From Acidimicrobiia bacterium (GTDB lineage: Bacteria > Actinomycetota > Acidimicrobiia > Spongiisociales > UBA11373): a stretch of 64,000 nt of DNA. The stretch lies in the NCBI GenBank assembly GCA_040878325.1, contig JBBDMM010000016.1, positions 1-64,000 of the forward strand, given 5' to 3'. The notes beneath the pieces were generated by a model. The model was not told the origin of the DNA. It was given only the letters and a program-made list of their open reading frames with translations, and did no database searches. The translations under genes and the position numbers were made by a program. Of the stretch, positions 25,235 through 36,089 are shown piece by piece. Numbering within the stretch: position 1 is the first letter of the stretch; the number at the start of each line of letters is the position of its first letter.

Positions 25235-25828
25235 ATGCCCCACCGGCCGCTTGCCATCGTTCCTCTCAAAGACTTTCGCGACGCGAAAGGGCGGCTCGAC
25301 CTTTCACCGGAGAATCGGTCGTCGCTCACCCAGGCAGTTGCCGAGCACGTGATCATCGCGTGTCGGGACGGAGGGCTGACTCCCCTCGTCGTCACCGGTT
25401 CTGAGGGCATGCGCGCCTGGGCGGCTGCGTTCGGGGCGGACGTGCTGGTCGAGACCTCGGGTGAAAGTCTCGATGCTGCGGCCGCCCACGGAGCCGCCCA
25501 GGCCGGAGGCGGCCCGTGGCTCGTCGTCCACGGCGACCTTCCACTTCTCTCGGCAGAGGACATTGCCCACGTCGGTCACTTGCTGGCGCGGGGCGGAGTC
25601 GTCCTCGCCCCGTCCCGGGATGGTGGCACCAACTTGTTGGGGGCCACGGGGCACTTCGACTTCCGCTACGGGCCGGCATCGTTCCACCGGCACCTGGCGG
25701 TGGCGGCCGACTGCGAGGTCGAGGTGGTGATCCGCCCCGGCACCGCCCTCGAGATCGACACCCTGTCGGACCTCCACTCGGTCGCGCGGCTCCCCTCCGG
25801 GGAATGGCTGCGCCGCTTCCTATCCTGA
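25235..25828 (+). CDS. cofC: 2-phospho-L-lactate / PEP guanylyltransferase (F420 biosynthesis)
   Basis: IVPLKDFRDAKGRL, GDLPLL, DGGTN, FRYGPASFHRH, EIDTLSDL. Confidence 0.85.
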   Translation: MPHRPLAIVPLKDFRDAKGRLDLSPENRSSLTQAVAEHVIIACRDGGLTPLVVTGSEGMRAWAAAFGADVLVETSGESLDAAAAHGAAQAGGGPWLVVHGDLPLLSAEDIAHVGHLLARGGVVLAPSRDGGTNLLGATGHFDFRYGPASFHRHLAVAADCEVEVVIRPGTALEIDTLSDLHSVARLPSGEWLRRFLS

Positions 25829-25832
25829 GCGC

Positions 25833-26954
25833 ATGAGCCAGATCGCAGTCTTGGGTGCAGGAATCGTCGGCCGGGCCGCGGCGTGGGACATGGTCCGCCG
25901 CGGCCACTCGGTTGTGATCGCCGACGTCGACCGAACCGCAGTCGATCAAGCCGCCACGGTGTCCGGAGCCACCGGATCGATCCTCGATGCGACCGATCCT
26001 ACGGCGCTGAGGGCCTTCCTCGAAGGGGTCGAGCTCGTGGTGTCCGCGGTTCCGTATGCCCTCGGCTTCGAAGTCGCCCGAACCGCGATCGATTCGGAAA
26101 CGCACTACCTCGACTTCGGAGGGAACCCAACCATCGTCGGCCGCCAGCTGACGCTTGACGCCGCCGCTCGCCGGGCCGGAGTCGGCGTGGTCCCCGACTG
26201 CGGCCTTGCCCCCGGAATGGCCAACGTGCTCGCCGTGGGCGCGGTCGAGGCGCTCGGTGACGGCCCGATCGACGAGGTCCGGCTTCGGGTGGGGGCGCTC
26301 CCCGCGGTCCCCACCGGCGCCCTCGGCTACCAGCTGGCATTCAATCCCGCCGGTCTGGTCAACGAGTACGACGAGCCCTGCGAGATCCTCGCCGGCGGCA
26401 AGTACGCCACCGTCGAACCCCTAACCGAGACCGAGGATGTCGCCTGGCCGGGCTGGGGGCCGCTCGAAGCGTTTCACACCGCCGGTGGTTCGTCGTCTCT
26501 CCCCCGCATGTGGGAGGGACAGGTGACTGAACTCGACTACAAGACCCTCCGCTTCCCCGGCCACGCCAACCCGCTACGGGCGATGCGTGAAGTAGGTCTG
26601 TTCTCCGAGGAACCCCAGCCAGACTCCGGGATCGCCCCGCGCACCGTGCTGCTCGAGGCGCTCCGTCGACACCTTCCCAGCGGCGCCGACGATGTGGTCC
26701 TGGTGCGGGTCTGGGCCACCGCCACCCGGGACGGCAAGCGCCGTACCGTGGGGTACCAGGTCGACGACCGACACGACGGAACCTTCTCCGCCCTTGCCCG
26801 CACCACCGCGTTCCCCGCCACCGCCCTCGCTCACCTACTCCTCACCGGCGAGGTCGACACCCGCGGGGCGGTGACCATGGACGGGGCAGTCCCGGCCGAG
26901 GCGATGATCCGGGAACTGGAGCCGGTAGGAGTGCGGGTGGACTCCTGGCCTTGA
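25833..26954 (+). CDS. Saccharopine dehydrogenase-like / lysine 6-dehydrogenase family oxidoreductase
   Basis: LGAGIVG, DCGLAPG, VGALP, GLVNEY, EAFHTAGG, YKTLRFPGH, RTTAFP. Confidence 0.88.
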   Translation: MSQIAVLGAGIVGRAAAWDMVRRGHSVVIADVDRTAVDQAATVSGATGSILDATDPTALRAFLEGVELVVSAVPYALGFEVARTAIDSETHYLDFGGNPTIVGRQLTLDAAARRAGVGVVPDCGLAPGMANVLAVGAVEALGDGPIDEVRLRVGALPAVPTGALGYQLAFNPAGLVNEYDEPCEILAGGKYATVEPLTETEDVAWPGWGPLEAFHTAGGSSSLPRMWEGQVTELDYKTLRFPGHANPLRAMREVGLFSEEPQPDSGIAPRTVLLEALRRHLPSGADDVVLVRVWATATRDGKRRTVGYQVDDRHDGTFSALARTTAFPATALAHLLLTGEVDTRGAVTMDGAVPAEAMIRELEPVGVRVDSWP

Positions 26955-26997
26955 GCCGGTAGCGGGAAGCGGGTAGCGGGTAGCGACTTGCTTTACC

Positions 26998-27732
26998 ATG
27001 AACCCGGTGAAGGAGACTCAAACCACTCAGGACGCCGTTGCCGTAATCACCGGGGGGACCGGAGGGTTGGGCCGACAGGTGGCGCATCGGCTCGCCGCCT
27101 CGGGTCATCGGCTGGCCATCACCTATCTCGTCCCGCAGGAAGCCAACGAGGTCGAGGAGTTTCTACGGATGCCGGAGGACCGGCTGCTGTTGAAGCGAGT
27201 CGACTGCACCGACTCTGAGAGCGTCAACAGCTTCATCAAAGAGGTGGCGTCGACCTTCGGCCAGATCAACGTGCTCGCCTGTCTGGTGGGCGGTTGGGCC
27301 GGAGGCCGCGACGTAGAGGAGACCGACGACGTCCGCTTCGATCGAATGATCGACCTGAACCTCCGCACCTCATTCAACGCAGTCCGCGCCACCCTCCCGT
27401 ACCTGCGCGATGCCGATTGGGGACGGATCCTGATGATCGGAAGTCGATCGGCAGTAGATCCACCCGCCGGTCAGGCCATGTACAACGTGGCCAAGGCCGG
27501 GGTCATCGCCCTGGTGCGCACCATCGCCGAAGAGGTGAGCGACTCGGAGGTGACCGCCAACGTGGTGCTCCCCTCACTCATCGACACGCCCGCCTTTCGC
27601 GAGGTGGTGCCATTTGCCAACTACGTCGACTGGCCCACCCCCGAGGAGATCGCCGCCGTCATCGAGTTCCTCGTATCGCCCACCTCCGGTGTGATCAACG
27701 GCGCGATGGTCCCGGTCTACGGGAAGACGTAA
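26998..27732 (+). CDS. SDR family oxidoreductase
   Basis: TGGTGGLG, YNVAK, NVVLPSLIDTP. Confidence 0.92.
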   Translation: MNPVKETQTTQDAVAVITGGTGGLGRQVAHRLAASGHRLAITYLVPQEANEVEEFLRMPEDRLLLKRVDCTDSESVNSFIKEVASTFGQINVLACLVGGWAGGRDVEETDDVRFDRMIDLNLRTSFNAVRATLPYLRDADWGRILMIGSRSAVDPPAGQAMYNVAKAGVIALVRTIAEEVSDSEVTANVVLPSLIDTPAFREVVPFANYVDWPTPEEIAAVIEFLVSPTSGVINGAMVPVYGKT

Positions 27733-27807
27733 GAGGGCCTCGCTCGCTCGGCCGCGCGGCGATTGGTTCCGCGTTCGTGTGCCTTCCGGCTGTGCCAACA
27801 TCGTGAG

Positions 27808-28476
27808 ATGAACGAGGATGACCGCTCCCTTCGGAACACCACCTACGGATTGTTCGTCGAGCTCGGCAGAGCTCCGACGGTGAGCGATGTCGCCGAAAAG
27901 TTGAACCGGACGCCAGAGGAGGTTGTAGCCGGCTGGCGGCGGCTTCATGCCGACCATGCGTTGGTACTCCAGGACAAGGCGGACGAGATCCGCATGGCCA
28001 ACCCATTCTCGGCGGTACCCACCGCCTACCGAGTACATGCAGACGGTCGATGGTGGTATGCCAACTGCGCCTGGGATGCGTTCGGAGTCCTCGCCGCGCT
28101 CCACGCAGACGGTCACATTGAGGCGTCTTGTCCTGATTGTGGCGACCCGATCGAAATCGAAGTGAAGGCCGGGCGTCCCGACAACGATACGTTGTGGTTC
28201 CACTGCCTTGTCCCTGCCTCGTCGTGGTGGGACGAGATCGCATTCACCTGAAGCACGATGAACCTCTTCCGGTCGGAAGAACACATCGGCCGATGGCTGG
28301 GAGGACGAACTCCAGGAGCCACCATCCCGGTCTCCACATTGAACGAACTCGCCCATGCCTGGTGGAGTGACCGGATCTCCCCGAACTGGCATCCCCGCAC
28401 GCCGGAACAAGGCCAGCGCATCCTCGACGAATTGGGCCTCGACTCCGAGTTCTGGCGCATTCGCAGGCCAGGGTGA
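27808..28476 (+). CDS. Organomercurial lyase MerB-like protein, probable selenoprotein (TGA 28249-28251 read as Sec148)
   Basis: N-terminal HTH, MANPFS, WYANCAWDA (MerB Cys/Asp motif), SCPDCG. ORFs 27763..28251 and 28258..28476 are in the same frame, joined by IAFT-TGA-STMNLFRSEEH; SECIS-like hairpin follows. Confidence 0.8.
28256..28288 (+). promoter_or_regulatory. Bacterial SECIS-like stem-loop
   Basis: CGATG-aacc-TCTTCC-GGTC-GGAAGA-aca-CATCG immediately 3' of the in-frame TGA; apical loop begins with G. Confidence 0.7.
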
Positions 28477-28488
28477 GTAAACCCTCCC

Positions 28489-28518
28489 CTCGGCGAGCGT
28501 ACGTAAATGTCATCAGAG
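28489..28518 (+). repeat. 30-bp cassette-boundary element, copy 1
   Basis: CTCGGCGAGCGTACGTAAATGTCATCAGAG. Confidence 0.85.
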
Positions 28519-28560
28519 GCTGTGCCCCAATCGGGGGCGGCATCTGTCAGGATTGAGCCG

Positions 28561-29235
28561 ATGGAAGTTGAGCTCCGGGCGGGTCCCTTCTCCTATGTCG
28601 ACACCGGCGGCGGCAAGGAAGTGATTCTCCTTCTGCATGCCATGCGCAGGTCGTCCAGTGACTGGCAGCCAATCATCGAGCGGCTTGGGGACACGTACCG
28701 GATGATCGCCCTGGACTTGCGGGGGCACGGCGGCAGTAGCCGACCTGCCAGTTACTCGCTTGAGTTGATGCGAGATGACGTTCGGGACTTCGCCGATGCC
28801 CTCCGACTCTCCCGGTTCCACCTGATCGGACACTCCATGGGAGCCACGGTCGCAATTCTGTTCGCCGAACGATGGCCGAGCCGACTTGACCGCCTGGTGC
28901 TCGAAGACACCCCGCCCCCCTCAGGTCGAGAGCAGGTTTCGGCGCCACCTCCCGAGGCTCCCGAACCAGTGCTGTTCGACTGGGCGGTACTCGGCCCGAT
29001 CATCCACCAACTCAACAACCCAGACCCTGGATGGTGGACCGACCTCCCCAACATCACCGCCCCCACACTCGTCGTCGGAGGCGGCAGCGACAGCTTCATC
29101 GATCAGGGAGAGTTGGCGGACATGGTGAGTCGGATCCCGGACGCACGACTTGTAACGATCGAGGCCGGCCACCATGTGCACAGCACCAAGCCTGACGAGT
29201 TCGCATCAGCCGTCTACGACTTTCTCACCGCGTAG
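28561..29235 (+). CDS. Alpha/beta fold hydrolase
   Basis: LLLHA, DLRGHGGS, GHSMG, GGSD, GHHVH. Confidence 0.92.
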   Translation: MEVELRAGPFSYVDTGGGKEVILLLHAMRRSSSDWQPIIERLGDTYRMIALDLRGHGGSSRPASYSLELMRDDVRDFADALRLSRFHLIGHSMGATVAILFAERWPSRLDRLVLEDTPPPSGREQVSAPPPEAPEPVLFDWAVLGPIIHQLNNPDPGWWTDLPNITAPTLVVGGGSDSFIDQGELADMVSRIPDARLVTIEAGHHVHSTKPDEFASAVYDFLTA

Positions 29236-29260
29236 TGCCCTCGGAGCAAAAGTCGGCCCC

Positions 29261-29290
29261 GTCGGCCACCGTACGTAAAGGTCATCCGAG
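29261..29290 (+). repeat. 30-bp cassette-boundary element, copy 2
   Basis: GTCGGCCACCGTACGTAAAGGTCATCCGAG. Confidence 0.85.
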
Positions 29291-29351
29291 ATCGGGGTCC
29301 TTTGCGGCGACACAGGACCTTGACCCGTGGTGTCGACCAGAATCACGCAGG

Positions 29352-30239
29352 ATGAACGAAGAGCAGTTGGAGAGGCTGCGAGTCGGGAAGGGCTTCATCG
29401 CCGCGCTTGATCAGAGCGGCGGGAGCACACCCGGCGCGCTGGAACACTACGGGATAGCTGAGGCCGGCTTCCCCACCGAGGATGACATGTTCGATCTCAT
29501 CCACGAGATGCGAACTCGCATCATCACGAGTCGGAGCTTCACAGGTGATCGGATCATCGGGGTGATCCTGTTCGAGAGGACAATGGACAGCGAGATCGCT
29601 GGCCGCGCGTCGGCGGAGTACCTCTGGTCGGTCAAGGGTGTCGTTCCGTTCCTCAAAGTCGATCGAGGCCTCGCGGATATGGCCGACGGCAGCCGCCGGA
29701 TGAACCCGATACCGGACCTCGGGTCGCTCCTCGAGCGTGCCACGGAGAAGGGCGTGTTTGGTACCAAGATGCGTTCGCTGGTCAGGCTTGCCGACCCCGG
29801 GGGGGTAAATGCGGTCGTCGACCAGCAAGTCGAGATCGGTTGTCGCATACTCGATGCCGGCCTGATCCCCATCCTCGAACCGGAAGTCGACATAGACAGC
29901 CCACAGAAGTCGGAGGTAGAACTCCTGCTGAAGCACGCTCTGCTGTCGCGTCTCGACGAGCTCTCGTCCAGCCAGTCGGTGATCCTCAAACTCACGCTGC
30001 CCGAGGAGGCCGACCTCTATCGGAGTCTCGTAGAGCACCCGCGAGTCCTCCGGGTGGCAGCCTTGTCGGGAGGGTTTTCACGGGACGAAGCCAATGCACG
30101 TCTTGCGAGCAACAGTGGCGTCGTGGCGAGCTTCTCACGAGCATTCACCGAGGGCCTCCGCTTCGACCAGTCCGACAGTGAGTTCGACGCTGCCCTCGAA
30201 GCGTCCGTGGAGTCGATCTACGAGGCCTCGATCACGTAG
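29352..30239 (+). CDS. Fructose-bisphosphate aldolase class I (Staphylococcus Fda type)
   Basis: GFIAALDQSGGSTP, ILFE, PFLKVD.GL, FGTKMRS, PILEPEV, LKLTLP, ALSGG, ASFSRA. Confidence 0.93.
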   Translation: MNEEQLERLRVGKGFIAALDQSGGSTPGALEHYGIAEAGFPTEDDMFDLIHEMRTRIITSRSFTGDRIIGVILFERTMDSEIAGRASAEYLWSVKGVVPFLKVDRGLADMADGSRRMNPIPDLGSLLERATEKGVFGTKMRSLVRLADPGGVNAVVDQQVEIGCRILDAGLIPILEPEVDIDSPQKSEVELLLKHALLSRLDELSSSQSVILKLTLPEEADLYRSLVEHPRVLRVAALSGGFSRDEANARLASNSGVVASFSRAFTEGLRFDQSDSEFDAALEASVESIYEASIT

Positions 30240-30270
30240 GCGACCCCTGCCCCCAGGCCAGGACCGTCCC

Positions 30271-30300
30271 CTCGGCCAGGGTGCGGGAATGTCACCCGAG
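30271..30300 (+). repeat. 30-bp cassette-boundary element, copy 3
   Basis: CTCGGCCAGGGTGCGGGAATGTCACCCGAG. Confidence 0.85.
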
Positions 30301-30313
30301 AGGGTGTCGTGAG

Positions 30314-30541
30314 TCAGTAGCTGACCGAGGCATCACGCACGATTGCTACAACAACCAGGACCACGAGCGCGTTGGCGGCTGCCAGCGCAAGAGAGCTGAG
30401 AACGCCTGCGAACGAGTCAACCGAACCCTGAGCGAGAACGATTGCGGCCCACGCGAGAGTGACTCCGACGCCGACCAACACCAAGCGTCGTGGGAGCGCG
30501 ATCCCTCCGACCAATGCCAGCAGCAAGACGGTGGGTATCAC
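30314..30541 (-). CDS. Small hydrophobic membrane protein (75 aa)
   Basis: SD AAGGAAG before GTG; three hydrophobic segments; fills the interval between elements 3 and 4. Confidence 0.65.
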   Translation of the reverse strand: MIPTVLLLALVGGIALPRRLVLVGVGVTLAWAAIVLAQGSVDSFAGVLSSLALAAANALVVLVVVAIVRDASVSY

Positions 30542-30600
30542 GCGGCTTCCTTTCCGTACTTCAAGGTACGCCTACTCGGCTCATGGGTGAAGTCGGCGCA

Positions 30601-30630
30601 CTCAGCCAGCGTGCGGAAATGTCATCAGAA
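30601..30630 (+). repeat. 30-bp cassette-boundary element, copy 4
   Basis: CTCAGCCAGCGTGCGGAAATGTCATCAGAA. Confidence 0.85.
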
Positions 30631-30638
30631 GTCGGCGA

Positions 30639-31121
30639 CTATCTGAACTCCCCGGACAGAAGCATCTTCACGGAGCGCCCATCTCGCGAGATCCCCCGGA
30701 ATCCGAAGCGCTCGTAGAGACGGACCGCGGGGTTCCTCTCATCGACCGAGAGACTGCACCGTTCTAACCCGTCCAGAAGCCGTACAAGTAGATCGCTCCC
30801 AACGCCCTGGTTACGGTGATCGGGAATGACCGCGATCGAGAGTTCTGGGGTGGAGTCGTCAATGAAGCCGTAGCCCGGCGCGGAATTGTCGAACAGTCGA
30901 ACCCAGGCCGCACCGATGGCTGTGCCCGAGGCATCCTCGGCGATAACTCCCCGATCACCAGTACGAAGCCCGAAGTCACGGTGATAGGGGGCCAAGTCCG
31001 GTTGATCCAAGACATCTCTCGGGAATGGCTGCATGCCAGACGGCACATACAGCGCCTCATACAGCATCTCGATCAGGAATGGCTCATCACCTGGTGAGGC
31101 GGGGCGAATCGTGTGGGCCAT
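30639..31121 (-). CDS. GNAT family N-acetyltransferase
   Basis: IRPASPGDEPFL.EML, IGAAWVR, PELSIAV..DHRNQGVG, SLSVDERNPAVRLYERFGF. Confidence 0.92.
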   Translation of the reverse strand: MAHTIRPASPGDEPFLIEMLYEALYVPSGMQPFPRDVLDQPDLAPYHRDFGLRTGDRGVIAEDASGTAIGAAWVRLFDNSAPGYGFIDDSTPELSIAVIPDHRNQGVGSDLLVRLLDGLERCSLSVDERNPAVRLYERFGFRGISRDGRSVKMLLSGEFR

Positions 31122-31161
31122 TGCTGCAGCGTAGAGAAACGAGGTGGTGTTCATTACCACC

Positions 31162-31191
31162 CTCCGCCAGCGTGCGGGAATGTCACCCGAG
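31162..31191 (+). repeat. 30-bp cassette-boundary element, copy 5
   Basis: CTCCGCCAGCGTGCGGGAATGTCACCCGAG. Confidence 0.85.
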
Positions 31192-31198
31192 GTGGTGT

Positions 31199-31849
31199 TC
31201 ACTCGTCGAGGAGAGTCGTGACCTGAGGAGACTTGACGAGGCACTGGCCGACGGCGAGCAGCTCGAAGTAGACAGGATTTTTCCCAACCAGGCTTGCCCT
31301 AGTGGTCAGCGAGTCGAGGGCAACGAAAGCTGCTTCCCTGGCCTTGGTGTCGGTCCTGTGAGGATCCCAATGGACACCGCCCATCTTGTTCGAAATGTAC
31401 TGAATCAGGTGCTGGCGCGAGATTCGACTGCCATCAACGACAGCGCATGGCTCGCGCAGGTATCGAGTGAGGGCCCAGGTCACCTCGGGTGGTCCGCGAT
31501 GTGAAGCATGGCGGCGGCGGATCAGTTCCGCGGGCATGACCCCGGCGTACCGGAGAACGGGCCCCACCTCCGCGCCGCCGTGTGTCGCCCCGCCAGCGAC
31601 AGCAAACTGCACCGCCTTCATGGCAAGGCCATCAAGGAACCTGTCCAGATCGGGTGAAGTCACCATGACGGGCCCCCGGAGCCCGAGCTCGGAGCGATAC
31701 CGATTCAGCAGCCCCCCATCATCGATCATGAGGCGTCTCAGTACGGTGCTGTCACGGCGGAGGAAGTCGTCGTCAACCTCCCGAAGAGTCCACGTCGAGC
31801 GCAGATAGCGAAGGTCTGCAACGACTTGGCGAGCGACTTCTGACTCCAC
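31199..31849 (-). CDS. Hypothetical protein (216 aa)
   Basis: Open frame filling the cassette interval; motifs LRRLM and ISNKMGGVHWD; no family recognised. Confidence 0.7.
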   Translation of the reverse strand: MESEVARQVVADLRYLRSTWTLREVDDDFLRRDSTVLRRLMIDDGGLLNRYRSELGLRGPVMVTSPDLDRFLDGLAMKAVQFAVAGGATHGGAEVGPVLRYAGVMPAELIRRRHASHRGPPEVTWALTRYLREPCAVVDGSRISRQHLIQYISNKMGGVHWDPHRTDTKAREAAFVALDSLTTRASLVGKNPVYFELLAVGQCLVKSPQVTTLLDE

Positions 31850-31969
31850 ATGGTCAGGCTATCGGAGCCGACTCCTGCTCGGGTGACCGGCATCCCTGTC
31901 AGCCAGCGTGACCTCATCCGTACACCACGAGGCTGAACGCGACACTGGCGGCGATGTTTCGACATGGGT

Positions 31970-31984
31970 CCCGAGGGGATTCGA
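31970..31984. repeat. Partial duplicate of the tRNA-Glu 3' region (att-like remnant)
   Basis: CCCGAGGGGATTCGA identical to 32219-32233. Confidence 0.6.
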
Positions 31985-32171
31985 CGTTCTCCGCGCAACC
32001 CGCCGACACCTCGACTGCCCCCACGCGCAGTCTCCGAACGCCAGCCGCCAGGCGGACATAAAACAACCCGAACCGAGACGGTGTTAGATCCCGAGTAGGG
32101 ATCGAACACCGCGACCACGGCCGCCATGGGATTGGGGCCCCATCTGGCGGAGGAGGCCGGACCAGCGTCTG

Positions 32172-32192
32172 TTCGGCGGCGAAGCCGCCGAA
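32172..32192 (-). terminator. Hairpin just downstream of tRNA-Glu
   Basis: TTCGGCGGC-GAA-GCCGCCGAA perfect stem. Confidence 0.6.
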
Positions 32193-32211
32193 GTCCGGCC
32201 GGGTATGTAGT

Positions 32212-32287
32212 TGGTAGCCCCGAGGGGATTCGAACCCCCGCTACCGGCTTGAGAGGCCGGCGTCCTAGGCCGCTAGACGACGGGGCC
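32212..32287 (-). tRNA. tRNA-Glu (anticodon CTC)
   Basis: GGCCCCGTCGTCTAGCGGCCTAGGACGCCGGCCTCTCAAGCCGGTAGCGGGGGTTCGAATCCCCTCGGGGCTACCA folds as a cloverleaf with encoded CCA. Confidence 0.97.
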
Positions 32288-32308
32288 ATGCGGTCCACAT
32301 GAACCGCC

Positions 32309-32383
32309 TGGCTCGGGGGGGAGGACTCGAACCCCCAACGACAGGACCAGAACCTGCTGTGTTGCCAATTACACCACCCCCGA
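32309..32383 (-). tRNA. tRNA-Gln (anticodon CTG)
   Basis: TCGGGGGTGGTGTAATTGGCAACACAGCAGGTTCTGGTCCTGTCGTTGGGGGTTCGAGTCCTCCCCCCCGAGCCA; U1-A72 pair consistent with GatCAB recognition. Confidence 0.97.
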
Positions 32384-32448
32384 AGGCGGGCGGAATGGTA
32401 ACGCGTCAGACGTGTCGGGAAACCTGCGGCTTTCGCGTCGGGCCGAAG

Positions 32449-32479
32449 AGCAATTGGCAATAGGCAATTGGCAATTGCG
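32449..32479. repeat. Heptamer array (GCAATWG)n
   Basis: gcaattg gcaatag gcaattg gcaattg. Confidence 0.75.
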
Positions 32480-32531
32480 CGTCAGTCCGCCGTCTGATTC
32501 AACCGGTGCTCGCGAGCAAGCCTTCCTGGCA

Positions 32532-33959
32532 TCAACCTCGGAGGCGGCCCGCGGCTTCCTTTAGGCGTGCCAGGGAACGCTCGCGGCCGAGGGCTTCAAG
32601 GGACTCGAACAGGGGTGGGCTGACCGAGGAGCCGGTGACGGCGACCCGGATCGGTTGGAGGCCCTTGCCGGCAGAGAGGCCGTGCTCGTCGAGCATGCCG
32701 CGAAGGGCCTCCTCGATGGCGCTGGTCGACCAGTCCGCGAGTGCGCCGAGGCGCGCCAGGGCTCCCTCGACCGCGACCACCGCCTCCGGCTTGGTCATGA
32801 CCTTGTCCCACGAACCGGGGTCATATTCGATCGGATCCGTGAACAGGAAGCGGGTCTGCTCGGGAACCTCTGTCAGCAGCTTGGCCCGCTCCTGAATGAG
32901 CGGAGCCACCGCCTCGAACAGGGTGCGCTCACCCGCATCGAGGGTGCGCCCCAGGCCGCCCTCGATCAGCGGCAGCGAGCGCCCGACGAAGTCGGGTACG
33001 GCCATCGCCCGGATGTAGACGCCGTTCATCCACTCGAGCTTGGCGAGGTCGAACACGGCCGGGTTGCTCGAGACGTCGGCGAGGTCGAAACGCTCGACCA
33101 TCGTGTTCAGGGACACGATCTCCTCGTCGGGCCCGGGGGACCACCCGAGGATCGCCAGGTAGTTGCTCATCGCCTCCGGCAGATAGCCCATCTCGCGGTA
33201 AGCCCGCAACGAAGTGTGCCCGTGCCGCTTGGACAGTTTCTTGCCATCGGGCCCGTTGATGAGGGCGAGGTGGGCATAGGTCGCCGCAGGCGCACCCAAT
33301 GCTGTAGTGAGAGCGATGTGTTTCGGGGTCGAAGAGAGAATGTCTTCGCCGCGCACTACGTGGGTGATGCCGAAGTCGACGTCGTCGACGGTCGACGCCA
33401 GGTGGTAGGTGGGCGTTCCATCGGACCGAAGGATGATGAAGTCGTCGACGTCGTCGTGGTCGAACCGCACCGAGCCCCGCACCAGATCCTCGAATTCGGT
33501 TGCGCCAGGCCGAGGCATGGCGAACCGGATCGGCTTGCCCGGCATCACTCCGTCACCGCGGTATTCGCCGCGATAGGCCGGTGAACGATTCTCGGACTGG
33601 GCGGCCTTCCTCGACTCCTCCAGTTGCTCCGCCGTGGCAAGGTCGTAATAGGCGTGGCCCGCGGCGACCATCTGCTCGGCGGCCTGGCGATAACGGTCGA
33701 ACCGCTCGCTCTGCCGGTAGGTGCCATGGAGGCCGCCAACCTCGAGACCCTCGTCCCAATCGAGGCCCATCCAGCGGAGCCCGCTGAGGATGTCCTCGTG
33801 GTACTCCGCCTCGCTGCGCTCGGTGTCGGTGTCGTCGGAGCGCAGGATGAAGGCCCCACCGCGGTTACGCGCAAACAGCCAGTTGTAGAGCGCGGTGCGG
33901 ACTCCTCCGATGTGGAGATGGCCGGTCGGAGACGGGGCGAACCGAACCCGGACCGTCAC
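32532..33959 (-). CDS. gltX: Glutamate--tRNA ligase
   Basis: [34 protein letters not shown]. Confidence 0.97.
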
Positions 33960-34720
33960 GAGCCCGCCACCACCGGATTGGCGAGCGTGCCAATTCGCTC
34001 GATTGTGACCTCGACCCGGTCACCGGGCACGATCGGGCCGACGCCAGCAGGCGTGCCGGTCAGAATCACGTCGCCTGGCAGCAGCGTCATCACCCGGGAG
34101 ATGAACGCGAAGATCTCGGCGACTCCGAACACCATGTCGTAGGTCGAACCCTCCTGGCGTAATTCGCCGTTGACCTCGCAGGTGATCCGCAGACCAGCGG
34201 GGTCGAGCTCGGTCTCGATGGCGGGGCCGAGCGGGCAGAACGAGTCGAACCCCTTGGCCCGGGCCCATTGACCATCCTTCTTCTGCAGGTCGCGGGCACT
34301 CACGTCGTTGCCGGCGGTGTACCCGAGAATGTGAGCGGCGGCGTCCTCGGCGGCCACGTGCCGGCTGACCTTGCCGACCACCACCGCCAGCTCGGCCTCG
34401 TGGTGAACATCCAACGCCTCGCTGGGGAGGACGATGGGAGCACCCGGGCCGATGACCGAGGTGGAGGGCTTGATGAAGATGACCGGATCATCCGGCACCT
34501 GATTGCCCAACTCGGCGGCATGCTCGGCATAGTTCCGCCCGACGCACACCACCTTGGTAGGGAACACCGGCGCAAGAAGATGCGCCTCCTCGAACGGGAT
34601 GATCGTCTCGGTGGGTTCCCAGGCCACGAACGGAGTCCCCCGGTAGACGGTGATCCCCTCAGCCTCGGCCACCCCGTAGACGATCTCGTCACCCTGGATG
34701 CGCACCCGCACGATCTTCAC
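33956..34720 (-). CDS. Fumarylacetoacetate hydrolase family protein
   Basis: [45 protein letters not shown]. Confidence 0.95.
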
Positions 34721-35166
34721 GACTCGCCGCCACTCCCCCCCATCGGGCCCATCAGCACGTCGCGGGGAATCGCCTCCACCAGGCGCCGGAGGCGCGAGTG
34801 GTCATGAGCGATACCGGAGACTGCTTCGGCACCGGCGGGCAGGTCGAGCAGGCCGATGGCTAGATCGATGTCGGGGCCTACAGGTGCGCGGCCGAGTGCA
34901 GACGACCGGGCGCTGATGATGGCCATCAAGGCCGCTTCGACGTCATCCTGCAGACCTGCTGGGACCTCGATGGCGCGGCGGCGAAGCAGCCTGAGGGCGT
35001 ACCCGGTGTCGGGCCCGGGCGTCCCAAACGGCCCACCCCAGGGAACTTGTTCCGGCGATACGAGGTCTCCAGGCCGATCGGGCCGCCACCGACGGGCTGC
35101 CGCCGGCTTGGCGGTGGCCCGGGGCAGGTCGGCGACAGTTATCGGGATGTTCGGTTGCTGACCCAC
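34717..35166 (-). CDS. Hypothetical protein
   Basis: Couples to the downstream gene by GTGA overlap; motifs [26 protein letters not shown]. Confidence 0.7.
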
Positions 35167-35174
35167 CAGAACTC

Positions 35175-36089
35175 CTACGCGTACTCGAGCCAGTGACGGT
35201 ACGGCTCGAGTTCGCCGGTGACCGCCTCCTTGAACAATTGCTGAGCGCGCCTCGTGATCGGGCCGGGGCGGCCCTCGCCGACCGGCCGATCGTCGATCTC
35301 GCGGATCGGGGTCACCTCGGCGGCCGTGCCGGTGAAGAACGCCTCGTCGGCGTAGTACAGGTCAGAGCGGGTCACCTGGGCCTCGATCACCTCGTATCCG
35401 TCGTCGGCGAGGAGCTTCATCACCGTGTCCCTGGTGATCCCCTCGAGCGCCCCGGCCGTGCTCGGCGGCGTCGACACCGTGCGGTCCCTCACCAGGAAGA
35501 CGTTCTGCCCGCTCCCCTCGGCGACGTAGCCCGCGTAGTTGAGCATGAGCGCCTCGTCGTAGCCGGCGGTGACGGCCTCCTGTTTGGCGAGCACGCTGTT
35601 GATGTATTGGCCGGTCCCCTTGGCGTTGGGGATGAGCGCCTCGTGGCCGATGCGGCGCCAGGACGACACCCGCACCCGCGCCCCGTCCTCGAGCGCGCTC
35701 TTGCCGAGATAAGCGCCCCACTCCCACGCGGCGATCGAAGTGTGGCTGATGGCTCCGGTGGGGTTGAGGCCCAGCGAACCGGCACCGAGGAACACGATCG
35801 GGCGCAGATAACAGACGTGCATCTCGTTCGCCCTGACGAGCTCGAGGGCCGCCTTCGAAAGATCCTCGACGGTGTAGGGCAACGGAATCCGGAACGCCTT
35901 GGCCGAGTGGACCATGCGGCGCATGTGGTCGCCGAGACGAAAAGCGGCCGCTCCTTCCGACGTGTGATAGACGCGAATCCCCTCGAACACCCCGGTCCCG
36001 TAATGGAGTCCGTGGGCGAGCACATGGACGGTCGCTTGCTCCCACGGAACGAGTTCGCCGTCGAACCAGATGAAGCGGGTGGGTTCCAT
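35175..36089 (-). CDS. ilvE: Branched-chain amino acid aminotransferase
   Basis: HGLHYGTGVFEGIR, YLRP, AKGTGQY, EGSGQN, LEGITR, FTGTAAEVTP. Confidence 0.96.
   Translation of the reverse strand: MEPTRFIWFDGELVPWEQATVHVLAHGLHYGTGVFEGIRVYHTSEGAAAFRLGDHMRRMVHSAKAFRIPLPYTVEDLSKAALELVRANEMHVCYLRPIVFLGAGSLGLNPTGAISHTSIAAWEWGAYLGKSALEDGARVRVSSWRRIGHEALIPNAKGTGQYINSVLAKQEAVTAGYDEALMLNYAGYVAEGSGQNVFLVRDRTVSTPPSTAGALEGITRDTVMKLLADDGYEVIEAQVTRSDLYYADEAFFTGTAAEVTPIREIDDRPVGEGRPGPITRRAQQLFKEAVTGELEPYRHWLEYA

Follow-up and report, generated by a model that had tools for sequence, protein, structure and literature searches.

The window examined here is a stretch of 64,000 nucleotides (64 kb) from the genome of an uncultured Acidimicrobiia bacterium of soil or sediment (GenBank assembly GCA_040878325.1, contig JBBDMM010000016.1), and the system in question is an array of single genes that are separated by copies of a 30-bp element, E, and closed on the right by a shorter related site, T. 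Comparison of the two sites makes it fairly likely that E is the long attP-type right arm (P') of the attachment site of a large serine recombinase (LSR), and the array itself is, with similar confidence, to be read as small cassettes, mostly of one gene and cis-mobilisable, that are stacked in tandem between LSR attachment sites. In what follows G000 is the genome from which the window comes (own genome), G001 and higher numbers are other genomes, X1-X4 are metagenome runs and C denotes a contig.

E is laid out as GCCAGCGT followed by 9 nt and TCACCCGAGG, and T as GCCAGCGT followed by 2 nt and either TCACATCAGAGG or TCTCGCCTGA, so the inner GCCAGCGT is common to both sites and the outer motif of T is shifted 5-6 nt towards the centre. 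For serine integrases, the parts of Rutherford et al. (2013, PMC3783163) drawn on here describe inner motifs common to attB and attP, with the zinc-ribbon motif 5 bp nearer the centre in attB. Judged from the sequences of the two sites, the half-site geometry of E and T matches the attP/attB pattern given in those parts of that source. The T of the window reads TCaGCCAGCGT-GA-CCTCATCCG and resembles the terminal site of G028:C66 (GCCAGCGT-GA-TCACATCAGAGG) as well as the sites of C6 and C10 of the own genome that lie 25 nt from an LSR start. An earlier note on this DNA had taken it (31899-31925) for a degenerate sixth copy of E; it proved instead to be a distinct site type, 5-6 nt shorter, with which arrays of several genomes close. 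The terminal site of the G061-G065 lineage reads cATGcGCGAGCGT-CC-TCTCGCCTGA (subtype T2) and closes arrays of G061, G063 and G065, and all E copies stood on the left side in 7 of 9 matches to this pattern. Only the two LSR-adjacent sites were credible among T-like sites of the own genome found at up to 7 mismatches, a scan for which the window T is too diverged to be recovered. A census of half-sites with loose patterns was set aside, its 94 L-only and 87 R-only in-array matches being mostly chance and of use as individual examples only.

A near-invariant dinucleotide lies 2-3 nt left of the core GCCAGCGT, with variable positions around it:

G000, 23 copies: TC in 22
Family relatives, 35 copies: T in 33, C in 34
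G062, 19 copies: T in 19, C in 18
G061/63/64/65, 82 copies: T in 73, G in 76

Both the onset of homology in cassettes shared between genomes and the joint of an X2 contig (31899), which are described below, fall at this central dinucleotide.

The C10 and C6 arrays of the own genome end right in a module of 3.3-3.7 kb composed of cargo, a Rep gene (+), a small open reading frame (ORF) and an LSR gene (-), and in both of them the LSR ATG is separated from a T site by 25 nt. The stretch from the LSR start codon to T resembles an E arm in inverted orientation (for example GCCAGCGTTGGTGTATGTTCCCTGA against the E variant GCCAGCGTTCGGGAATGTTCCCTGA), with a mean local alignment score of 10.5 in clade B and 8.8 in clade A compared with 5.6-6.0 (standard deviation 1.3) for shuffles. 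Because this inverted arm is followed by T, the LSR-proximal site would be a quasi-palindrome of long arm, centre and short arm, and because the start codon abuts the inverted arm (P), with T coming next, the site would be an attR. Internal junctions look attL-like, with a short left arm contributed by the tail of the preceding cassette and then P', whereas array ends without the enzyme look attB-type (T) and those with the enzyme look like attR. C6 and C10 also contain tandem units that repeat every 52 bp; each of these may be an element that has lost its interior, leaving P' and a shortened P.

Sites and cassettes in the window

Five copies of E were found on the + strand, starting at 28489, 29261, 30271, 30601 and 31162, which are the co-oriented 30-bp copies that the earlier note had listed. 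When the window was scanned with a 22-nt core pattern (GCCAGCGTRCGKRAATGTCAYC, up to 3 mismatches) exactly these copies were recovered and no further one, in agreement with the same note, and dinucleotide-preserving shuffles of the window gave 0 core matches in each of 100. The conserved unit extends about 8 nt leftward of the 30-bp element (ccgtcCCCTCGG...) and takes in the near-invariant TC. A Pfam scan placed a single gene in 5 of 5 inter-element intervals, in either orientation as had been claimed, and no recombinase or transposase family was detected among the 15 window ORFs scanned (25235-36089), in agreement with the claim that the array has no integrase or transposase. GC at third codon positions is 0.70-0.77 in the cassette genes and 0.80-0.89 in the flanks, and tRNA-Glu and tRNA-Gln genes lie at 32212-32383. 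The sites and cassettes are as follows:

27741..27778, + strand: E0, degenerate left-most site; CTCGGCCGCGCGGCGATTGGTTCC resembles E; between the SDR stop (27732) and the MerB-like gene
27763..28476, + strand: Cassette 0, MerB-like gene (alkylmercury lyase family; Pfam MerB), in-frame TGA at 28249-28251
28481..28520, + strand: E1, putative attL-type junction; short conserved left inner arm, TC at 28490-91, long right arm GCGAGCGTACGTAAATGTCATCAGAGG
28507..29235, + strand: Cassette 1, alpha/beta hydrolase (Pfam Abhydrolase_1/6); true start probably downstream of E1
29253..29292, + strand: E2 junction; central TC at 29262-63
29235..30239, + strand: Cassette 2, class I fructose-bisphosphate-aldolase-like (Pfam Glycolytic, E 2e-6); start likely near 29355
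30263..30302, + strand: E3 junction; central TC at 30272-73
30314..30541, - strand: Cassette 3, 75-aa protein, no Pfam family; stop 13 nt right of E3
30593..30632, + strand: E4 junction; central TC at 30602-03
30639..31244, - strand: Cassette 4, GNAT acetyltransferase (Pfam Acetyltransf_1/7/10); stop 8 nt right of E4
31154..31193, + strand: E5 junction; central TC at 31163-64
31199..31849, - strand: Cassette 5, 216-aa protein, no Pfam family; stop 7 nt right of E5
31891..31925, + strand: T, short terminal site (putatively attB-type), ..cctgTCaGCCAGCGT-GA-CCTCATCCG; central TC at 31899

The three stops on the minus strand reproduce the 7-13 nt spacing that had been reported for genes ending near an element. 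Homologues of two cassettes stand inside arrays of other genomes, that of Cassette 1 in G002:C65 (69% identical) and that of Cassette 4 in G005:C29 (67% identical). The MerB-like gene is to be regarded as a cassette too, because the degenerate E0 lies on its left and because the X4 contig leaves the window DNA on both sides of it. This gene is common to G001:C8 and to contigs of X2, X3 and X4 at 98-99% identity; the X3 and X4 contigs diverge from the window at 27779, the edge of E0, and the DNA to the right of E1 is unlike that of the window in G001:C8 and in those contigs sharing the gene that extend beyond E1.

The ends of E had been described as weakly self-complementary (CTCGG...CCGAG); this did not extend to a consistent hairpin, since folding of the 45 nt of DNA upstream of each own E copy gave none, only frequent pairings between G-runs and C-runs. 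A scan of 27500-32600 against Rfam at E<=1 returned only the two tRNAs and chance-level matches. The tRNA-Glu 3' end was also considered as the source of the repeat and rejected, as it is not the E sequence.

Some further observations were made in and near the window. The in-frame TGA of the MerB-like ORF (28249-28251) falls inside the MerB domain, and the Pfam match, which covers profile positions 1-80 at 65 bits without readthrough, covers 1-124 of 126 at 95 bits with it. A hairpin of 6 bp (TCTTCC-GGTC-GGAAGA) begins 13 nt past the TGA, the own genome has a tRNA-SeC, and the TGA is kept in G001:C8; the cassette is therefore a candidate for encoding a selenocysteine-containing protein of the alkylmercury lyase family. 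A GC-rich repeat of about 87 nt (32117-32203) occurs in dozens of copies in three genomes of the same genus. At 31960-31985 there is a 15-nt copy of the tRNA-Glu 3' end (CCCGAGGGGATTCGA), about 230 nt from the gene, and within 31971-32213 the X2 and X3 contigs skip 191 and 230 nt respectively, which together suggest a small insertion at the tRNA end that is separate from the cassette array. Finally, a heptamer-type repeat (GCGGGTA/GCGGGAA) lies at 26953-26988, and a stretch of about 30 nt in it matches many places in G001 and G003.

The recombinase module and its relatives

The own genome has two tyrosine recombinases (PF00589), neither of them near an array, five serine recombinases and two Rep genes of the PF23343 family. 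The LSR at the end of the C10 array is the following:

C10:136517-137923, - strand: own LSR, 468 aa; PF00239 Resolvase, PF07508 Recombinase, PF13408 Zn_ribbon_recom

The copy in C6 is 94-96% identical to it over residues 1-269. This C6 gene is split in two by a run of about 50 C (G000:C6:244620-244670; L024 18620-18670), which is either an assembly artefact or a real disruption. An ORF of 56 codons (G000:C10:136372-136542; L025 12372-12542) is situated immediately before the LSR stop, where it overlaps with the Rep end, and its position is kept in C6; it may encode an accessory or directionality factor.

The same order and polarity, with E followed by LSR on the opposite strand, was found in G008, G019:C13, G019:C75 and G034:C150. 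Within the family, Rep occurs in 11 of 36 genomes and LSR in 14 of 36, the LSR copies often standing on short contigs of 1.5-3 kb. In other families, 3 of 24 genomes gave weaker LSR matches (33-44% identity), G040 being one of these.

The search was extended to metagenomes with an alignment of six LSRs as query, and 80 loci were kept of 470 relatives. Among 72 distinct usable upstream regions, 28 had a T-type site within 95 nt of the LSR start (13 T1 and 15 T2; 22 of the 28 at up to 3 mismatches and most at offset 27), compared with 35 of 1600 random control windows. T1 accompanies LSRs that are 67-83% identical to the own enzyme, and T2 accompanies LSRs that are 47-56% identical. Rep was adjacent in 34 of the 80 loci and E stood downstream in the expected orientation in 23 of the 80. 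As T2 lies beside a metagenomic LSR clade, the terminal site of MAG (metagenome-assembled genome) arrays whose genomes have no serine recombinase is an LSR-adjacent site. The question whether a recombinase co-occurs with the element, which the earlier note had raised, is thus answered by an LSR, often with a rolling-circle Rep, that ends two other arrays of the own genome and adjoins the same site type in metagenomes.

More distant LSR relatives (45-59% identity; L250, L251, L252, L262-L264, L275, L291 and L294) have the sequence ..LFLDELGEF.. encoded upstream of their start, which places them in comM/Mg-chelatase-like genes. Such genes are a known LSR target.

Distribution and turnover of the cassettes

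The own genome (2.21 Mb, 18 contigs, 66.6% GC) gave 22 core matches, compared with 0 for a reversed control, and a looser scan with the 30-mer gave about 25 E copies in five clusters, co-oriented within each:

C6:48239-49317: 2 copies
C6:235959-241108: 10 copies
C10:132015-134640: 5 copies
Window: 5 copies
C18:64063-67265: 3 copies

In a scan of 60 genomes at up to 2 mismatches, E was present in 34 of 36 genomes of the same family and in 0 of 24 genomes that represent 11 further families of the order. When one genome per species was scanned with the exact pattern, at least 149 E-bearing stretches were obtained, and the matches listed are from Acidimicrobiia, Gaiellaceae/Thermoleophilia, many MAGs labelled 'Actinomycetes', one MAG labelled Chloroflexia and a few short contigs binned elsewhere. 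The MAGs G061, G062, G063, G064 and G065 have 41, 23, 17, 5 and 39 E copies respectively, in many arrays. Over 83 inter-element intervals of these five MAGs the median length was 732 bp, one ORF was called in 48 of the 83, and 56 ORFs ran opposite to E and 39 in the same direction. The motif thus occurs in co-oriented arrays only, five in the own genome and many in relatives, and is not scattered singly; single scatter was the outcome that the earlier note had named as telling against its proposal. Two exact-pattern matches came from viral contigs: one, a genuine E next to a beta-propeller gene, closes an 8.8-kb contig in which no recombinase was found, and the other was discarded as a chance match within an ORF at 57% GC.

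Arrays sit among unrelated housekeeping genes at many loci, and tRNA genes adjoin only some of them. Their cargo is ordinary accessory metabolism, comprising GNAT proteins, hydrolases, glyoxalases, methyltransferases, a toxin-antitoxin pair and many proteins without a family. At the edge of the C18 array (G000:C18:67950-68715; L026 11953-12715) there is an HTH_3 and Gp49 (HigB/HigA-like) pair with homologues, 71-73% identical, in arrays of G005:C29 and G008; it is a toxin-antitoxin cassette of the kind found in large integrons.

The locus of the window differs between related genomes. In G008, assembled as a single contig, the SDR gene lies 88 bp from tRNA-Glu and the array is absent; in G001, whose flanks are 92-98% identical, the MerB-like gene and the first element are followed by another cassette; in G002 the locus is taken up by 7.4 kb of other DNA that contains no E. 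Contigs of the runs X1-X4 were aligned to positions 27000-33000 of the window, and parts of the array left uncovered in X2-X4 were excluded from the evidence. A contig of X2, which is another sample of the same study, joins E (34 nt, ending at 28519) directly to 31899 at a depth of 30.9, and in this run the five window cassettes are covered only at a depth of 0-17. A contig of X4, 98.5% identical over the MerB-like gene, passes into unrelated DNA on either side, to the left of 27779 and to the right of the first element. The T-distal MerB cassette is common to G000, G001, X2, X3 and X4, and in those seen beyond E1 (G001, X2 and X4) the content near T is different. At a tRNA-Ser locus, G001 has a 3-kb array that ends in T and is without LSR, and G003 has no array. 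X1 is probably the source sample of the own genome; two apparent X1 joints (28519/30268 and 30300/28487) were rejected as cross-mapping from other arrays of the own genome, and a loose X1 end (TCAGGGCACAACGCAGGGCCTC) proved to be the C6 tandem unit.

Cassettes are also shared between arrays of different genomes or loci, where comparison by blastn gave 17 segments of at least 84% identity and at least 250 bp. Examples are the following:

G061:C4 / G065:C16: shared cassette, 97.6%
G063:C26 / G064:C3: shared cassette, 97.8%
G061:C3 / G063:C46 / G065:C10: shared GNAT cassette, 95-96%
G061:C2 / G063:C46: shared cassette, 92%

In 8 of the 17 segments, homology sets in 1-13 nt before the core, at an equal offset in both partners and with unrelated flanks beyond. 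An apparent case of one cassette at three loci in G065 (C6, C9 and C11; L214, L215 and L216) was rejected: a region of 8 kb is present three times at 99% identity, so that one region assembled three times is no evidence of mobility, and the triplicates are probably strain variants or duplicated contigs in the bin. Taken together, the arrays, the variation in their content between strains (another cassette in G001, an empty locus in G008 and E joined to T in X2) and the co-occurring LSR support the proposal of the earlier note that the elements are recombination sites of a gene-capture platform acting in trans.

Proposed cycle, rival explanations and known systems

A cycle can be proposed in which the central TC would be the crossover dinucleotide. 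The Rep-LSR element would integrate at the terminal T by attP x attB recombination and, on excision, its attR could pair with the attL of the element itself or with one lying anywhere further left, carrying off the T-proximal cassettes. After integration elsewhere the element could leave alone, dropping the cassettes and regenerating T. Growth and variation of the arrays would in this way take place at the T end, and the element acting on them in trans would also be able to live as a small plasmid. The cycle fits the data in that arrays without the Rep-LSR element end in T, in that the T-distal MerB cassette is shared and the T-near content is variable, and in that the tRNA-Ser locus has an array ending in T without LSR in G001 and no array in G003. 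It is given less weight than the assignment of E as an LSR arm, and it leaves the first acquisition of arms by new genes unexplained.

Several points weigh against these interpretations. LSR is present in 14 of 36 family genomes compared with 34 of 36 for E, and a PF00239 match is lacking in 8 of 10 element-bearing MAGs outside the family (G061-G064 and 4 of 5 Gaiellaceae MAGs), which is a main weakness; G065 has two serine recombinases, neither of them near E. No recombinase was found among 130 ORFs flanking arrays or among 36 ORFs inside them (30 of G061-G065 and 6 of the own genome), and tblastn with the own recombinases and Rep found none within 1.5 kb of the 149 listed E-bearing stretches of other species. 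Loss of small multi-copy or plasmid-borne elements from MAGs may hide the LSR, which is not counted here as evidence. The empty loci of G008 (window locus) and G003 (tRNA-Ser) have only loosely T-like sequence and no clean attB. Neither an excised circle nor an attP junction, a reciprocal product or an empty attB made by excision was observed, the contigs showing variants only. To our knowledge, canonical LSRs do not recombine attL x attL, so lone internal cassettes should not move. Also unexplained by the simple cycle are a 29-nt 'empty cassette' of X2, in which the P' arm is directly followed by T, and the 52-bp-period tandem units of C6 and C10. The arm assignments themselves were made by eye and with simple scores.

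Some of these counts bear equally on the possibility that the arrays are made by another enzyme and that the Rep-LSR element is a parasite using array sites as attB, in the manner of the IS1111-attC elements, which use integron sites. The scarcity of PF00239 in MAGs outside the family, the excess of genomes with E over those with LSR and the lack of a recombinase adjoining the G061-G065 arrays are all in its favour. However, no alternative enzyme was found, the own genome having only two tyrosine recombinases and a canonical dif; the logic of the sites (a P'/B' shift of 5-6 nt, an inverted P arm and an invariant dinucleotide) fits an LSR, and the T2 that ends arrays without LSR is the LSR-adjacent site in metagenomes. 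This explanation is therefore held to be unlikely. A rolling-circle capture similar to that of IS91, ISCR or Helitron elements, whereby the HUH Rep (PF23343) would nick E and copy to the next E, is improbable. It would account for the Rep that stands beside LSR in both elements of the own genome and in the 34 of 80 metagenomic loci noted above, and for E copies that are all co-oriented with Rep, but the array LSR modules of G008 and G019:C13 are without Rep, Rep is limited to 11 of 36 family genomes, folding gave neither a consistent E hairpin nor a hairpin at a nick site, and the arm geometry of E and T together with the palindromic P|T site points to a dimeric recombinase.

That E is a dif-like site served by XerC and XerD, as in pdif modules and in IMEX (integrative mobile elements exploiting Xer), can be given hardly any credence. 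The two tyrosine recombinases are the only ones of the own genome and ATGTCA within E faintly resembles a XerD arm, yet the only dif-type site of this genome is a canonical one (28 bp, ATAA-N6-TTAT, conserved arms; G000:C12:10048-10075) and is unlike E, which weakens the Xer explanation and agrees with the earlier note, which had set the element apart from dif. Furthermore E has no 11-6-11 dyad, its copies are co-oriented and not alternating, and the five arrays are at different loci. It is likewise very improbable that E has no part in mobility, as a regulatory motif, promoter, terminator or repetitive extragenic palindromic (REP)-like repeat, or that it is a variant of the integron attC site. 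E is indeed intergenic, near gene ends and conserved in sequence; nevertheless, genes face either way relative to it (the 56 and 39 given above), it has neither an Rfam match nor a consistent fold, and E-bounded units recur at 92-98% identity at unrelated loci of other genomes. As to attC in particular, there is no third tyrosine recombinase that could be an IntI, and E has about half the length of attC and is conserved in sequence, not in structure.

Returning to E as an LSR arm, a wider picture, to which belief and doubt are given in equal measure, is that soil and sediment Actinomycetota (Acidimicrobiia, Gaiellaceae, others and perhaps lineages beyond the phylum) have a chromosomal, multi-locus, integron-like cassette system with serine-recombinase chemistry. 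Single genes would each be supplied with one attP-type arm, an attB-type site would be regenerated at the growing end, a plasmid-capable Rep-LSR element of 3-4 kb would ferry cassettes between arrays and cells, and exchange communities would be set by TC versus TG. If true, part of the strain-level gene turnover in these abundant uncultured lineages would be explained, on a scale of about 25 cassette junctions in 2.2 Mb here and up to about 40 in some MAGs; the E/T site pair and the small enzymes would then be testable as new tools for site-specific integration. The 22-nt core would also be a sequence handle for pulling mobile accessory genes from metagenomes.

In the literature, titles and the openings of abstracts gave no description of single-gene cassette arrays of a serine recombinase or of the E motif, and comparison with known systems is therefore made feature by feature. 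Integrons are the textbook route for stockpiling and swapping single genes and are rare in Actinomycetota. The present arrays are similar to them, and to clusters of attC sites lacking integrases (CALIN), in their co-oriented and mostly one-gene cassettes, in a special terminal site that would be regenerated at the growing end, in being often without the enzyme and in a cargo of GNAT, glyoxalase, hydrolases and a toxin-antitoxin pair. They differ in having no IntI, in using a sequence-conserved double-strand half-site and not a folded attC, in the class and chemistry of the enzyme and in an enzyme gene that lies inside the last cassette and not beside a fixed platform. The attC sites have RYYYAAC...GTTRRRY ends and an imperfect hairpin of at least 55 nt, whereas E, of 30-40 nt, has neither such ends nor such a fold, as the earlier note had recognised, and the only two PF00589 genes of the own genome are not near arrays, nor was one found adjoining arrays elsewhere. 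With pdif modules and IMEX the arrays have in common small gene modules, short recombination sites and an enzyme encoded elsewhere, and are set apart by an E unlike the own dif, by the co-orientation of all copies and by an arm geometry of LSR type.

The closest known systems are two with serine recombinases. The staphylococcal cassette chromosome (SCC) elements, including SCCmec, use CcrAB or CcrC, enzymes of the LSR family, and form tandem elements parted by att repeats, in which those without an enzyme are moved in trans or with their neighbours. SCC elements are bound to one locus, the 3' end of rlmH, and are many kb long with many genes. The likeness lies in tandem units between repeated att sequences and in the LSR-family enzyme; here, on the other hand, there are at least five loci per genome, mostly single-gene units and an autonomous element that encodes a rolling-circle Rep and is only about 3.5 kb long, and the arrays are found between unrelated housekeeping genes in many places and not at rlmH. 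The ssrA islands of Dehalococcoides, in the parts of McMurdie et al. (2011, PMC3146451) used here, are tandem and bounded by direct repeats, with a module of the CcrB-like serine recombinase DsiB at one edge, and islands without that module were proposed to be cis-mobilisable and to move by accretion. As described in the same parts of that source, they use one site only, within the tmRNA gene, whose 3' end itself forms the repeat, and they have a length of about 12 kb and an integration module of six genes, whereas here the repeat lies outside any gene, at many loci, and the units are of single genes. Relative to these two systems, the present arrays differ in having units of one gene each, a spread over many loci of the genome, a site lying outside host genes, a short T that would be regenerated and a Rep carrier of 3-4 kb.

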